Part shown: piece after piece, positions 983 to 26,828 of the stretch
Layout of the letters: each line of letters begins with the position of its first letter
How positions within the stretch are numbered: position 1 is the stretch's first letter
From: Candidatus Iainarchaeum sp.
Lineage (GTDB): Archaea > Iainarchaeota > Iainarchaeia > Iainarchaeales > JACQJH01
NCBI GenBank assembly: GCA_016205145.1
Contig: JACQJH010000002.1
Span: 605,307 to 637,306 of the forward strand
Length of the DNA: 32,000 nt
Reading direction: 5' to 3'
Position numbers and translations under genes: made by a program
The notes under the pieces: generated by a model
The model's input: only the letters and a program-made list of their open reading frames with translations
The model's database searches: none
What the model was told of the DNA's origin: nothing

Positions 983-1702
983 TTAATCTGATTTGAGCAA
1001 AAACCTGCTGTAAACGAATGCCGCAAGAATTGCCCCGGCAACCGGGCCGATCCAGTAAACCGCCTGGTTTTCAAGGAAGCCTGACGCCATGGCCGGGCCG
1101 AAAGCGCGCGCAGGATTCATCGCAGCACCAGTCAGGACGCCGCCTGCAAGAATGTCGAAGACAAGAACCAGGCCGATTGCCGCGCCATAAACGCCTGCCG
1201 GGGCGCGCCTGTCAACCGCAACCCCGAAAACCGTGAAGACAAGGAAAAACGTGAGGATTGCCTCAACGGCAATGCCAGCAAAAACCGAAACGCCCGAACC
1301 AAGCGCGGGCGTGCCCAGATGCAGTGAACCCGGCGCTGACGGAAAGACAATGGAAAGGAAAAAGCCCGCAAGCAAAGCGCCGCAAACCTGGGAAAAAATG
1401 TAAAACAACGCCTTTTTCGGCTTTATCTGGCGGCCGGCAAGCAGGCCAATCGTGACTGCAGGGTTTATGTGTCCGCCTGAAACATGGCCGGTCGCATAAA
1501 CCATTGCCATCAGGACAAGACCATGCGCCAACGCAATGCCGAGCAGGCCGGCCTGGCCGCCGGAAGCATTGTCTGCGAGAACGGCTCCGGCGCCTATGAA
1601 AACAAGGGCAAAAGTGCCGATTGATTCTGCCAGAAAAGCCGGAAAATCGCCCAAGCCAACCACGCCAAAAGAAACAAGAATAATATATGAAACACAATTC
1701 AT
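983..1702 (-). CDS. MIP-family channel (aquaporin/aquaglyceroporin)
   Basis: 239 aa, strongly hydrophobic, with two NPA boxes (HINPAVT and MNPARAF). ATG at 1702. Confidence 0.9.
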   Translation of the reverse strand: MNCVSYIILVSFGVVGLGDFPAFLAESIGTFALVFIGAGAVLADNASGGQAGLLGIALAHGLVLMAMVYATGHVSGGHINPAVTIGLLAGRQIKPKKALFYIFSQVCGALLAGFFLSIVFPSAPGSLHLGTPALGSGVSVFAGIAVEAILTFFLVFTVFGVAVDRRAPAGVYGAAIGLVLVFDILAGGVLTGAAMNPARAFGPAMASGFLENQAVYWIGPVAGAILAAFVYSRFLLKSD

Positions 1703-17885: not shown

Positions 17886-18070
17886 CTTACTCGGCCATTG
17901 CAACAGCAATGGCATTAGTTCGTACCCGCCGGACGCGACGGCGGTCAGGGGAAACACACCCTAAAAAGCCATTTAAAAAGCAAAAATTATTGTAGTTGTC
18001 ATCGGCCCGGCCAAGAGGAAAGGCAACCAAAAGCCTGTTCCCCGCAAACCCGGAGCCAGGAGATGGGACA

Positions 18071-19030
18071 ATGGGAAAAGACAGCAAAAGCGAGATAAAA
18101 TCTATTGAGGATTTGCCCGGGGTGGGGCCGCAAAGCGCGGAAAAGCTTATTTCTGCCGGCTATGCCACGTTGGAGGGAATTGCGGTTGCATCGCCAGCCG
18201 AACTCGTGGAAGCGGCCGGCCTTGGAGAGGCGACTGCCGCAAAAGTAATCAAGGCCGCGAGGGATGCCCTTGAAATGGGCTTTGAAAGCGCGGACGTTCT
18301 CGCAGAAAAAAGAAAGCTTGTCGGAAAGCTGACAACCGGCAGCAAGGAAGTTGACAACCTGATCGGCGGGGGCATTGAAACGCAGAGCATAACCGAAGTT
18401 TACGGAAAATTCGCTTCGGGAAAAACGCAGTGGTGCTTCGAGACAGCCGTAACTTGCCAGCTGCCGAAAGACCAGGGCGGACTGGAAGGAAACTGCCTTT
18501 ACATTGACTCTGAAAATTCTTTCAGGCCTGAGCGCGTCATAAGCGTTGCGCAGAGGTTCGGCCTGGACGAAAACGAGGTGCTCAAAAACATTTTTGTTGC
18601 ACGCGCATACAATGCAGACCACCAGATGCTTTTGGCTGAAAAGGCGTCGGAAATGGTCAAGGAAAAAAACATCAGGCTTGTCATCGTCGATTCCCTGACA
18701 GCGCAGTTCAGGTCCGAATTCATCGGCAGGGGACAGCTTGCAGGCAGGCAGCAAAAGCTCAACAAGCACATGAGAACATTGCAGAAGCTGGCCGAAATGA
18801 GCAATGTCGTGGTGCTGGTGACAAACCAGGTCATGGAACGGCCGGACATTCTCTTCGGCGACCCGACAGCGCCTGTTGGCGGCAATGTTGTCGGCCATGC
18901 ATCCAAGACAAGGATTTATCTGAGGAAAAGCAAGGACGACAAGCGCGTTGCCAAACTCGTCGACTCGCCTTCGCTGCCGGACGGGGAAGCCATTTACAGG
19001 GTAACGGAAAAGGGGCTGGAGGACATTTAA
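18071..19030 (+). CDS. radA: DNA repair and recombination protein RadA (start at in-frame ATG 18071; the track ORF begins earlier at 17996)
   Basis: N-terminal HhH segment LPGVGPQSAEKLISAGY, Walker A GKFASGKTQ and Walker B RLVIVDS. About 319 aa, as typical for RadA. Confidence 0.93.
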   Translation: MGKDSKSEIKSIEDLPGVGPQSAEKLISAGYATLEGIAVASPAELVEAAGLGEATAAKVIKAARDALEMGFESADVLAEKRKLVGKLTTGSKEVDNLIGGGIETQSITEVYGKFASGKTQWCFETAVTCQLPKDQGGLEGNCLYIDSENSFRPERVISVAQRFGLDENEVLKNIFVARAYNADHQMLLAEKASEMVKEKNIRLVIVDSLTAQFRSEFIGRGQLAGRQQKLNKHMRTLQKLAEMSNVVVLVTNQVMERPDILFGDPTAPVGGNVVGHASKTRIYLRKSKDDKRVAKLVDSPSLPDGEAIYRVTEKGLEDI

Positions 19031-20839: not shown

Positions 20840-21220
20840 ATGTTTGAGGAAAAGATTTCCGTCAAGGACATAATTGACGAAATGAGAAGGGAGCTTCGCG
20901 CCCAACAGGAAGACGAACTGCCTGCGCCCAAAGGACCCCCTTTAAGGCTTTCGCACCCCGCGAAAAAAGCCGGGCAAAAACTGAAAACCGTGAAAATTGG
21001 CAAAAAGGCGAAAAAGCCGAGAAAGATAAAAGCCGGAAAAAGGCCTAAAACCGCGAAAAAGGCTAAGAAAAAGGCAAGCCGGCCGAAAAAACCGGCAAAA
21101 AAGAATGCCGTGAAAAAAGGCAAAAAAGCCAAGCCTAAAAAAACCAAAAAAACATCCAAAGGAAAACAAGCCAAAAAGGCAAAGGCCGGGAAAGCCGGCA
21201 AAAAAAAGGGAAAAAGATAG
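20840..21220 (+). CDS. Small protein with acidic N-terminal helix and an extreme Lys/Ala/Pro-rich tail (histone H1/HC2-like low complexity)
   Basis: 126 aa. The ~85-residue tail consists of KKAKK / PKK / AKK repeats. A TATA-like AATAAATATAA lies ~35 nt upstream. Confidence 0.6.
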   Translation: MFEEKISVKDIIDEMRRELRAQQEDELPAPKGPPLRLSHPAKKAGQKLKTVKIGKKAKKPRKIKAGKRPKTAKKAKKKASRPKKPAKKNAVKKGKKAKPKKTKKTSKGKQAKKAKAGKAGKKKGKR

Positions 21221-21260
21221 CTGTTTCCTTTCCCGCTTGCCGGCTTTTAAACGCGCAGGG

Positions 21261-22394
21261 TTATTGCTGCACGAATTTTTTTATTTCCCGCTCAACAGAA
21301 GAAAGCGCATTCCGCACGCTGGTCAGGGCGCTCCATCCCGAATCCTTTGCTATGAAAAGCTTTCCCGCCGAATTCAGCCTGACCGAAACATCGTACTTGT
21401 GCCTTGCACCGGAAGCGCTGAGTTCCTTGAAATGCACGAACAGGATGATTTCATTGTGCAGCAGCATTTCAGCCTTGTCGTAAAGCGCGTCCAGGGAACT
21501 GCTGAAGGTTGCGGCGTCAATCTCATCGAAAGCCGGGCAATCGCTGACCTGGATGTTCCTGCCGGGCCCGGATTTCAATGCATCAAATGCCTTCAGCAGG
21601 TTCGTGATGGTCACTATGCCGCGGGGCCTGCCGTCAAAAATTATGACGCTTGAAACGTTTGCCCTGGACATTTTCTGGACAATGGCCGGCAACGATTCTT
21701 CTGGCGAGGCCGTCACGATTGTTTCAGGCGAAAGCCTGCTTTTCACCAGGACGCCTGAAATGGTCTCGTTCTCCTTGAAAGCCTTCATCGAATACCCCAT
21801 ACTCGACCTTACCCCGCCCTTCTTTTTCGGCGGGTGGATCAGGAAATTCCGCATCAGGTCGGTGAAGGAAACTACTCCGACCAGCACGCCGTTCCTGTCG
21901 GCCAAGGGAATCTTGTCTATGCCCTTCTTGCGCATTGCGGAAAACGCCTGCGAAAGCGTCGAGCTGTCAGGCAGCGAAATGAAATCCTTTGTCGCAATGT
22001 CCATTGCCTTCATTGCGCGGAGCTCGCCGAAACTGTTTATGCTCCGCAAAACCGAAGAATGGGTGACAACCCCAAGCAGCTTGTTCTTGTCAAAAACCGG
22101 GAGAGTGCGCAGGCCGGTTTCAAGCATGAGCTTGGCAATCCTTTCAACCGGGTCCGCGGGTGAAAGCGCGGGCGCCTTTTCAGTGACTGAAGAATTGCTC
22201 ACCTTGGAAAAGTCCTTGGTGCCGCGGTAAAGGGAGCGCCATGAAACAATGCCCGAAAAATTTTTCCCGTCAAAAACAAGCGCGTTCTTGTTCTTTGTAG
22301 AAATGAACTGGTTCATTGTCTTTGAAACCGGGTCGGAAGCGGAAACCCTCAGAAAATCGCCGTCAACAAGATCGGCCGCAGAAACCTTCGCCAT
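21261..22394 (-). CDS. Four-CBS-domain protein fused to a C-terminal HPF/RaiA (ribosomal S30AE)-like domain
   Basis: Four CBS repeats occupy residues ~1-270. Residues 279-377 show the beta-alpha-beta-beta-beta-alpha pattern and consensus-like positions (RHK..V.V.L..G.L.A; SALTSVRNALSSVEREIKK). A GAGGTGA Shine-Dalgarno sequence lies 7 nt upstream of the ATG, and the gene starts 11 nt downstream of tpiA. Confidence 0.8.
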   Translation of the reverse strand: MAKVSAADLVDGDFLRVSASDPVSKTMNQFISTKNKNALVFDGKNFSGIVSWRSLYRGTKDFSKVSNSSVTEKAPALSPADPVERIAKLMLETGLRTLPVFDKNKLLGVVTHSSVLRSINSFGELRAMKAMDIATKDFISLPDSSTLSQAFSAMRKKGIDKIPLADRNGVLVGVVSFTDLMRNFLIHPPKKKGGVRSSMGYSMKAFKENETISGVLVKSRLSPETIVTASPEESLPAIVQKMSRANVSSVIIFDGRPRGIVTITNLLKAFDALKSGPGRNIQVSDCPAFDEIDAATFSSSLDALYDKAEMLLHNEIILFVHFKELSASGARHKYDVSVRLNSAGKLFIAKDSGWSALTSVRNALSSVEREIKKFVQQ

Positions 22395-22405
22395 AAAATC
22401 TCACC

Positions 22406-23077
22406 TCAAAAACCGCTGACAAGGTCAAGCATTGCCGCCTCGGGAGAGGAAACCTTTATCACGCCGGAAGCGACAAAAATGCCCTTTGCGCCAAGCTCCA
22501 TTGAAACCCGGACATCCTCGGCTGACTTGACTCCGGCGCCGACAAGCAATGGAATGCCGTGCTTTGAGACCGCCTCGACGCACTCCGCAATCAGGTCCGG
22601 CTTCGCAGTCGAAACCGAAACATTCCCGCCGATCAATTCAGGGGGTTCGAACGCAATCAGGTCCGGCTTCGACGCAAGCGATGCGATTGCCCCGGCCCGT
22701 TCAACGGTTTCAGCGCACGCCAAAACATTCAGGCCCGAGCCTTTGGCGATTGAAATCGATTCAGCAAGGCATGGCGCGTCGATTTTGCGCTCCGCATGGT
22801 TGAGCACGGTGCCGGATGCTCCGGCTTCCTTAACTGCTTCCGCAAGCACCTGGCCGGTATGCGCGCCCGGCCTGATTGCGTCAACGTGCTGGCAGAAAAC
22901 CGGAATCGAAACGTTCTCGGAGACAAGCCGCAGGTCGGCTGCCTGCGGCACGACGCAGACGCAGTGCTCCGATTGCAACGAAACCCGCTCGGCGGCCTTC
23001 GCCAAAGCCAGGGCATTCCTGCCGGTGGACTCGGAATAGGTTTTGAAATTCACGAAAAGGCATGGAACCCCGAGCAT
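22406..23077 (-). CDS. tpiA: Triosephosphate isomerase, short archaeal type
   Basis: 223 aa with VNFKTYSESTG, VLNHAERK and LLVGAGV motifs typical of archaeal TIM. Confidence 0.87.
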   Translation of the reverse strand: MLGVPCLFVNFKTYSESTGRNALALAKAAERVSLQSEHCVCVVPQAADLRLVSENVSIPVFCQHVDAIRPGAHTGQVLAEAVKEAGASGTVLNHAERKIDAPCLAESISIAKGSGLNVLACAETVERAGAIASLASKPDLIAFEPPELIGGNVSVSTAKPDLIAECVEAVSKHGIPLLVGAGVKSAEDVRVSMELGAKGIFVASGVIKVSSPEAAMLDLVSGF

Positions 23078-26090: not shown

Positions 26091-26828
26091 TTGAACAGAG
26101 TCAAAACCGGAGTGAAAGGCCTCGATGAAATAATCGAAGGCGGTTTCCCGGAAGGAAGGACCGTGCTTGTCACTGGCGGGTGCGGAACCGGCAAGACGAT
26201 AATGGCAATGCAGTTCATTTATTCCGGCGCAAAGGAATTCAATGAAAACGGGGTTTACGTCACCCTTGACGAGCGGCCGGACCTTGTCAGGGAAGACATG
26301 CTCAAGTTCGGCTTTGACCTGAAGGCGCTGGAAAGAGACGGAAAAATCCACCTCATTGACGGCAGTGTGGCGAAAATCGGCCTGCCATCTGACGAGGAAT
26401 ATTCACTGCCGGTGACGGGGTTCGACCTGGACAAGCTGCTTCTGGAAATAATGCGGTCAATCAAAAAAAACAACGCAAAACGCATTGTCATTGATTCGAT
26501 CCCGGCGCTGGGCCTCAACTTTGAAAACGAGCAGGAAGTCCGGAAGGCAATCATAAAGCTCGGGTACATTCTGCAGCGCGCCGGCGCGACAGTCATAATA
26601 ATATCGGAAATAGAGGATGAGCAGAAGCTGAGCAAGTACGGCGTCGAGGAGTTTGTCGCGGACGGCGTGATAGTGCTGCATTACCTTGGCGTGGGAAGCC
26701 ACAGCAACCGCACGCTGCACATAAGAAAAATGCGCTCCACAAAGCACTCCGAAGAAGTGCACCCGCTCAAAATAACCGAAACGGGGATAAAAATCGGAAA
26801 AATAGGCGCCGACTACTCCAAAGTTTAA
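26091..26828 (+). CDS. KaiC-like / RadA-paralog (aRadC-type) single-domain RecA-superfamily ATPase, TTG start
   Basis: GLDEIIEGGFPEGRTVLVTGGCGTGKT (Walker A) and RIVIDSI (Walker B). A strong AGGTGGGGG Shine-Dalgarno sequence lies 8-10 nt upstream of TTG 26091. Confidence 0.8.
   Translation: MNRVKTGVKGLDEIIEGGFPEGRTVLVTGGCGTGKTIMAMQFIYSGAKEFNENGVYVTLDERPDLVREDMLKFGFDLKALERDGKIHLIDGSVAKIGLPSDEEYSLPVTGFDLDKLLLEIMRSIKKNNAKRIVIDSIPALGLNFENEQEVRKAIIKLGYILQRAGATVIIISEIEDEQKLSKYGVEEFVADGVIVLHYLGVGSHSNRTLHIRKMRSTKHSEEVHPLKITETGIKIGKIGADYSKV

Follow-up and report, generated by a model that had tools for sequence, protein, structure and literature searches.

Does an archaeon of the DPANN group encode a ribosome hibernation factor in which a CBS tetrad is joined to an HPF-type domain? 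The question is raised by a minus-strand gene in a 32,000-nucleotide (nt) stretch of Candidatus Iainarchaeum sp. (contig JACQJH010000002.1, positions 605,307 to 637,306; referred to as the window), whose 377-amino-acid (aa) product had been read, in a preliminary description made from the letters alone, as four CBS repeats followed by an HPF/RaiA-like domain. We find that the gene very probably codes for an archaeal ribosome hibernation factor of the HibA/AHA family, in a subclade whose named members all come from Diapherotrites/Iainarchaeota (DPANN).

This family has been described twice, independently. HibA (PAB0961 of Pyrococcus abyssi, TK1186 of Thermococcus; PDB 9SR9-9SRF; Madru et al., Nat Commun 2026, PMC13324472; preprint of October 2025, bioRxiv 10.1101/2025.10.11.676729) consists in P. 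abyssi of a CBS module (residues 1-269) and an HPF/RaiA-like domain (residues 270-392). The C-terminal domain lies in the mRNA/tRNA channel of the 30S subunit, as does bacterial HPF, and the CBS module is seen at three places on the 50S subunit, namely the peptidyl-transferase centre (PTC), uL5 and the L1 stalk, with the domains moving independently; a loop of residues 190-207 enters the PTC, and HibA inhibits translation in vitro (PMC13324472). AHA (HVO_2384 of Haloferax volcanii; Souza et al., bioRxiv 2026, PMC12934967) is the other description of the family, and its ribosome-bound form carries two AMP molecules at the CBS3/CBS4 junction. Cryo-EM structures exist for HibA and AHA alike; in both, AMP/ATP is found at the CBS3/CBS4 interface, and knockouts of hibA and of the AHA gene delay recovery from stationary phase (PMC13324472, PMC12934967). 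Binding to 70S ribosomes, inhibition and stationary-phase ribosome protection have been reported for HibA of P. abyssi and Thermococcus barophilus and for AHA of Hfx. volcanii (PMC13324472, PMC12934967). The family occurs in about 40-47% of archaeal genomes (PMC13324472, PMC12934967): HibA was found in 47% of 4,026 genomes, in all major lineages (PMC13324472), and 3,160 AHA homologues were collected from 17 archaeal phyla with seeds that included DPANN sequences (PMC12934967).

Since HibA and AHA have been described, HPF domains no longer count as exclusive to bacteria and plastids, as the preliminary description had held, and the architecture that it had not known to be described is exactly that of these two proteins. 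Its claim of novelty has been overtaken by the 2025-2026 papers, and the locus holds no new principle beyond them. The raw-sequence reading nevertheless recovered a real and recently discovered module, an HPF domain that in archaea is joined to an energy-sensing CBS tetrad. The family to which it belongs extends HPF-type hibernation beyond bacteria, ties hibernation to nucleotide sensing of the AMPK-gamma kind and may explain how ribosomes are preserved in slow-growing, often host-dependent archaea.

Both the open reading frame (ORF) and the residues quoted for its C-terminal domain had been placed correctly. We take the ORF to be a real gene because its product is identical (100%) to the NCBI protein MBI4053683.1, recorded as 'MAG: CBS domain-containing protein [Candidatus Diapherotrites archaeon]' (MAG, metagenome-assembled genome), because relatives exist at 90% and 72% identity and because more than 1,150 cluster representatives match at an expectation value (E) of 1e-30 or below. 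Two plus-strand ORFs that overlap it, 21553..22230 and 21237..21653, were set aside, as the homologues belong to the minus-strand frame. The present label of MBI4053683.1 can accordingly be sharpened from 'CBS domain-containing protein' to HibA/AHA ribosome hibernation factor.

A phmmer search of all PDB sequences returned two chains of ribosome entries, 9l96_a (406 aa; E 2.5e-31, residues 6-372) and P. abyssi HibA, 9sr9_H (392 aa; E 4.7e-31, residues 8-372), and both alignments extend through the C-terminal domain. A word-indexed homology search found six full-length relatives only; an exhaustive HMMER search of 1.84 billion cluster representatives with a six-sequence profile yielded 1,153 proteins at E <= 1e-30. 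Of the best 150 matches, about 137 have a length of 350-430 aa and span the two domains of the profile. From these data we used an alignment of 143 full-length family members and a second one of 72 C-terminal domains, excised from the first and headed by the domain under study. The HibA and AHA papers define the family by four CBS domains plus an HPF domain and not by the C-terminal tail; the 377-aa protein carries four CBS domains and an HPF-like domain in one chain and is homologous to HibA/AHA along its length, so that it belongs to the family. As a separate observation, chain a of PDB entries 9l96, 9l98, 9l9c and 9l9v is a 406-aa 'CBS domain-containing protein' with the two-domain layout of HibA. 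It may represent a third independent structure of the HibA/AHA family, and it may be a haloarchaeal member; in the library searched we found no paper citing these entries.

Single-sequence searches with the C-terminal domain gave weak results, and family profiles and structure prediction were therefore needed. Residues 318-374 match PF02482 (Ribosomal_S30AE) below threshold: the score is 13.3 bits with the whole protein and 17.8 bits (E 0.0057) with the C-terminal 109 aa alone, and the gathering cut-off is 23.7 bits. Queried alone, the domain has no NCBIfam match and finds only HibA 9sr9_H among PDB sequences (E 0.0024). A profile built from the 72 C-terminal domains, when run against the PDB, first finds HibA 9sr9_H (E 1.3e-23) and 9l96_a (E 3e-12), then about 25 bacterial and plastid HPF, RaiA, YfiA and pY chains (E 6e-07 to 0.08), and reaches the first unrelated chain at E 0.32. 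When the same 72 domains are scanned singly, 40 match PF02482 at E <= 0.01 (best E 3.4e-07), and no other Pfam family is matched by more than one of them. Since the score is below the cut-off but 40 of 72 family domains match, the domain is a distant homologue of PF02482 and not a canonical member. PF16321, the dimerisation domain of long HPF, has no match in the protein in Pfam.

Structure prediction agrees with the profiles. The AlphaFold2 model of the C-terminal domain has a predicted local distance difference test (pLDDT) score of 92, and its topology, which is the same in the full-length model, is strand 280-284, helix 294-312, strands 316-328, 331-342 and 345-353 and helix 356-376. In a Foldseek search of the PDB with this model, the top 28 matches are all HPF, RaiA/YfiA/pY, PSRP1, MPY or RafH (E 1.5e-06 to 1e-03; template modelling (TM) score 0.5-0.7), and a few double-stranded RNA-binding domains (dsRBD) appear from rank 29 on, at TM 0.35-0.47. 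The S30AE kinship proposed in the preliminary description thus falls short of threshold for the single sequence but is solid at the level of the family, and the HPF fold that it expected is borne out by the model; neither of the outcomes it had named as fatal, the lack of any profile or structural match and a tail of some other fold, was found.

The N-terminal part is equally clear. PF00571 matches in four stretches (E 9e-37), as the preliminary description had anticipated, and there is a single tetrad; four CBS units are seen in the full-length AlphaFold2 model (pLDDT 80.6 overall, about 80-90 in the tetrad). The best Foldseek matches of this model are SriA (9znf_4, E 8e-19), AMPK-gamma and the N-terminal tetrad of Dri, a structural kinship that has also been reported for the CBS modules of AHA and HibA (PMC13324472, PMC12934967). 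HibA is absent from that list, which holds CBS tetrads only, perhaps because the fold library ends at 8 April 2026, and the separate model of the C-terminal domain was for this reason required to examine the HPF fold. The linker between the two parts is predicted to be flexible, with pLDDT below 50 at residues 275-278 of the full-length model and at residues 1-9 of the C-terminal-domain model.

The CBS tetrad also carries a counterpart of the loop with which HibA and AHA reach the PTC and the motifs of a predicted nucleotide site. An extended loop after CBS3 is present, as in HibA and AHA; in the phmmer alignment it pairs with residues 188-208 of HibA, the loop that inserts into the PTC (PMC13324472), and insertion of the present loop is predicted by analogy. 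P189, K190 (Arg in HibA), K192, G200 and F206 match HibA, and Tyr195 of HibA, which stacks on A2602, is unmatched and pairs with V195, with a Tyr found at position 201. Between D179 and T228 lie 48 residues, where the family median is 38, and residues 191-204 have pLDDT below 50, so that the loop is predicted to be disordered when free. The ribose/phosphate-binding motifs of CBS3 (GVVSFTD) and CBS4 (GIVTITN) are intact and agree with the consensus of the 143-member alignment: G173 is conserved in 141 and D179 in 106 members, G259 in 136 and T262 in 109, and position 265 is Asp in 128 and Asn in 12. CBS1 and CBS2 have Ser at the acidic position. Coordinates of these and the neighbouring features are collected in Table 1.

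Table 1. Position of the HibA/AHA-type gene, its parts and flanking features in the 32,000-nt window
Feature	Coordinates	Strand	Remarks
Complete hibA/AHA-type gene	21261..22394	-	377 aa, ATG start, TAA stop (ORF list, sequence)
N-terminal CBS tetrad, residues 1-270, two Bateman modules	21585..22394	-	predicted 50S- and adenylate-binding module
CBS3 ribose/phosphate-binding motif G-h-h-S-x-x-D (GVVSFTD), residues 173-179	21858..21878	-	family conservation
Extended loop after CBS3, about residues 187-210, HPPKKKGGVRSSMGYSMKAFKENE	21765..21836	-	counterpart of the HibA 'PTC loop' and AHA 'loop 3'
CBS4 ribose/phosphate-binding motif G-h-h-T-x-x-N (GIVTITN), residues 259-265	21600..21620	-	family conservation
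Interdomain linker, residues 271-278 (DALKSGPG)	21561..21584	-	flexible; low pLDDT
C-terminal HPF/RaiA-like domain, residues 279-377	21264..21560	-	predicted 30S decoding-centre plug
Shine-Dalgarno-like GAGGTGA	22401..22407	-	6 nt 5' of the ATG, overlaps the tpiA stop codon; direct sequence reading
Terminator-like hairpin followed by a T-run	21209..21234	-	27 nt 3' of the stop codon; consensus scan
tpiA, co-oriented, upstream	22406..23077	-	PF00121 TIM, E 1.3e-32
Long RSH (Rel/SpoT), 620 aa	24177..26039	+	HD_4, RelA_SpoT, TGS, ACT; PF04607 E 9e-37
Convergent 126-aa ORF	20840..21220	+	acidic N-terminal ~30 aa, then extremely Lys-rich histone H1-like tail KKAKKPRKIKAGKRPKTAKKAKKK...

Judged by its homologues, the protein would bind ribosomes and inhibit translation, and its role is most likely ribosome silencing and protection. 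The HPF/RaiA-like domain would occupy the decoding centre within the mRNA/tRNA channel of the 30S subunit, where it would overlap the A- and P-site tRNAs and the mRNA; the HibA and AHA structures suggest that its binding site would be that of bacterial HPF. The flexibly tethered CBS tetrad would dock on the 50S subunit at tRNA positions, with its long CBS3 loop extending into the PTC. With the HPF domain on 30S and the tetrad on 50S, a single chain would hold the subunits together as an inactive 70S ribosome during starvation or stress and shield the rRNA from nucleases. By the same analogy, an adenine nucleotide, preferably AMP, is the most likely ligand of the CBS3/CBS4 interface.

The preliminary description went further and proposed an ATP/AMP-gated translational shutdown. 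In its explicit form, the AMP-bound protein would stay on the ribosome and ATP would release it. The canonical ribose-binding motifs of CBS3 and CBS4 speak for such a scheme, as do the two AMP molecules in ribosome-bound AHA and the affinities of the HibA CBS module, which binds AMP more tightly (Kd, the dissociation constant, 12 µM) than ADP (65 µM) or ATP (113 µM) (PMC13324472, PMC12934967). For ARC, a related but separate set of standalone CBS tetrads, the published abstract describes ATP binding as triggering rapid mobilization of the complex from the ribosome. However, 5 mM AMP or ATP had no clear effect on the binding or the main conformations of reconstituted P. abyssi 70S:HibA complexes, and native HibA-ribosome complexes were without nucleotide (PMC13324472). 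Since HibA prefers AMP and yet saturating AMP or ATP left its ribosome binding unchanged, gated shutdown stays a hypothesis even for HibA; we consider gating of ribosome attachment by ATP/AMP plausible in general and a release of the present protein by ATP possible but doubtful.

Besides the lack of a clear nucleotide effect on ribosome binding by HibA, several properties of the protein weigh against its assignment as a HibA-type factor. The protein shares only about 20-25% identity with HibA, and its single-sequence PF02482 score stays below the gathering cut-off. The domain ends 9 residues past the conserved Glu368 (family median, 19) and therefore has no basic tail; in HibA the tail, residues 375-387, touches h23, h24, uS7, uS11 and eS28 (PMC13324472, Supplementary Data 1). 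R292, R299 and R362, with which HibA grips h44, correspond to T296, A303 and S365, and the two proteins differ at the beta-hairpin tip (F325/R326 in HibA) with which HibA touches G530/A1492 and uS12, in a mapping that comes from a pairwise HMMER alignment and is unreliable in loops. Finally, the C-terminal domain is slightly acidic, with a net charge of -1 (13th percentile of the family). Other positions at which HibA contacts 16S rRNA are kept or conservatively replaced, namely L311, I317, H321 (for Tyr317), R339, I348, A349, K350, R361 and R369. A short C-terminus, with 12 residues or fewer after Glu368, is found in 34 of the 143 members, including most listed members of the Iainarchaeota subclade. 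In so divergent a family, the deviations in tail, charge and contacts amount to differences of degree.

These deviations could be taken to mark a diverged HibA paralogue, in which loss of the C-terminal tail and of several rRNA-binding arginines would have caused a change of role, such as binding to 50S only through the very basic CBS module, action on host ribosomes or sequestration of other partners. The charge difference between the domains (the CBS module has a net charge of +15, the 93rd percentile of the family) would suit this reading, and HibA pull-downs in Thermococcales also brought down replication and recombination proteins (PMC13324472). We regard it as improbable, as confidence in the predicted HPF core fold is very high, the core contacts R339, K350, R361, R369 and H321 are kept and the 34 short C-termini indicate that tail length varies within the family; moreover, HibA from which the two archaeal insertions were deleted still inhibits, which suggests that the contacts are redundant (PMC13324472). 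A second HibA- or HPF-like gene was not noticed in the 32-kb window, in which no systematic search for one was made.

The locus nevertheless documents a tail-less HibA subclade with a basic CBS module in Iainarchaeota. Every named nearest relative comes from Candidatus Diapherotrites, Iainarchaeum or 'ainarchaeum', and for two of them the JGI annotation reads 'CBS domain-containing protein/ribosome-associated translation inhibitor RaiA'. An RNIQ...P-x-LDEID motif, with which the HPF domain opens, is common to the nearest relatives. This motif, the missing basic tail, a CBS3-CBS4 loop region that is about 10 residues longer and the CBS charge of about +15 could together be the marks of a functionally distinct variant that grips the ribosome mainly from the 50S/PTC side and whose hibernation is tied to guanosine tetra- and pentaphosphate [(p)ppGpp] and not to AMP alone. 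Such a tie might hold because most Diapherotrites have a bacterial-type long Rel/SpoT, here encoded 1.8 kb away, and it might operate through expression control or through ligand binding. If so, a bacterial-style stringent-response and hibernation circuit would have been rebuilt in an archaeon; we give this idea little credence.

There is, finally, the reading that the protein is a generic, non-ribosomal CBS regulator whose C-terminal alpha/beta domain (dsRBD- or ACT-like) resembles HPF only superficially, for which the sub-threshold PF02482 match, the few dsRBD from Foldseek rank 29 onward and the bare NCBI label might be cited, but which is effectively refuted, and in our view extremely unlikely, given the 28 HPF-type structural matches ranked above any other, the family profile that finds HibA and some 25 bacterial HPF/RaiA chains before another fold, the PF02482 matches in 40 of 72 family domains and a full-length alignment to ribosome-bound HibA that takes in the C-terminal domain.

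Comparison with known systems places the HibA-type protein closest to HibA and AHA. It resembles HibA in the full-length alignment, the extended post-CBS3 loop, the CBS3/CBS4 nucleotide-site motifs and several 16S-contacting residues, and differs from it in the tail, the length of the loop region, the hairpin tip, the three h44-binding arginines and a much more basic CBS module; it also comes from a small-genome DPANN archaeon known from a MAG, whereas HibA is from a hyperthermophile. AHA, with which the comparison is by description only, shares the layout of four CBS domains plus HPF and has its CBS3 loop 3 in the PTC and AMP at CBS3/CBS4 (PMC12934967), but is an acidic haloarchaeal protein with a terminal helix longer than that of Escherichia coli HPF. 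Bacterial and plastid HPF, RaiA (YfiA, pY) and PSRP1 share the fold of the C-terminal domain, as the profile and TM values above indicate. Unlike the present protein, in which the HPF-like domain follows a 270-aa CBS tetrad, bacterial HPF is either a single domain (about 95-115 aa) or a long form that ends in a dimerisation domain; in none of these factors does a CBS tetrad precede the HPF domain, and all contact the small subunit only.

A further group, SriA-D, ARC-P and ARC-A, and Dri, comprises CBS-tetrad hibernation factors of Methanosarcina, Methanolobus and Thermoproteota (PMC13454478, 10.64898/2026.01.19.700304), whose distribution is largely exclusive with that of HibA/AHA (PMC13324472, PMC12934967). 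These ribosome-bound proteins have a homologous CBS tetrad, which in SriA gives the best structural match, and several have a loop that inserts into the PTC; they are without an HPF domain and are either separate proteins (Sri, ARC) or a double tetrad (Dri). Membership in the ARC/Sri group was rejected, since the kinship runs through the CBS tetrad only and the 377-aa protein has an HPF-like domain and a single tetrad. AMPK gamma likewise forms a four-CBS disk with adenylate sites (Foldseek E ~1e-17, TM ~0.53 by query and 0.65 by target), but is part of a kinase heterotrimer and has neither a ribosome-binding domain nor a PTC loop.

Around the hibA-type gene, tpiA, corA and the divergent long RSH lie on one side and the Lys-rich 126-aa ORF, tgt and radA on the other. 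The gene begins 11 nt after the end of tpiA, as the preliminary description had it, and the two are possibly carried on one transcript. The strong Shine-Dalgarno sequence that it assigned to the gene is present as a motif with a putative role in initiation. Downstream, the terminator-like hairpin counts as weak evidence, with 14 such sites in the scan against 8.4 +/- 3.5 expected in shuffles. The RSH, transcribed divergently from the hibernation-factor gene, scores 501 bits on TIGR00691 (cut-off 499.2), and RelA/SpoT proteins had been reported before in 69% of Diapherotrites genomes as a bacterial acquisition (PMC8407392). The 126-aa ORF has no Pfam or NCBIfam match; its product could be nucleic-acid-binding or ribosome-associated. 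The 72% identical relative (L001) keeps the order hibA, small convergent ORF, tgt and radA, with a 110-aa ORF at 1224..1556 in the same convergent position.

Adjacency to tpiA is not seen in more distant relatives, one of which has yet another gene context, and no RSH lies within 8 kb of the HibA-type gene in three other Iainarchaeota loci (L005-L007). As these contexts differ, we rejected the idea that a tie in function to the adjacent tpiA, corA and RSH is a conserved feature, and the RSH and tpiA adjacency is not treated as functional because it is not conserved. In the three loci, the HibA-type gene is separated by 0-2 kb from a conserved translation-related cluster (L005, 9150..14405; L006, 7069..13982; L007, 5131..12044) with genes for kae1/tsaD, sua5, S27e, S24e, spt4, rpo7, a PIN-domain protein, aIF2-gamma, S6e and aIF5B, a proximity that loosely fits a role in translation. 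An amino-acid permease is encoded upstream in the same three loci. In the window itself, a KaiC/RadB-like single-domain ATPase (26091..26828, plus strand; PF06745, E 3.7e-74) adjoins the RSH gene, and a canonical RadA (17996..19030, plus strand; PF08423, E 5e-97) is encoded 2 kb beyond the other side of the hibA-type gene.

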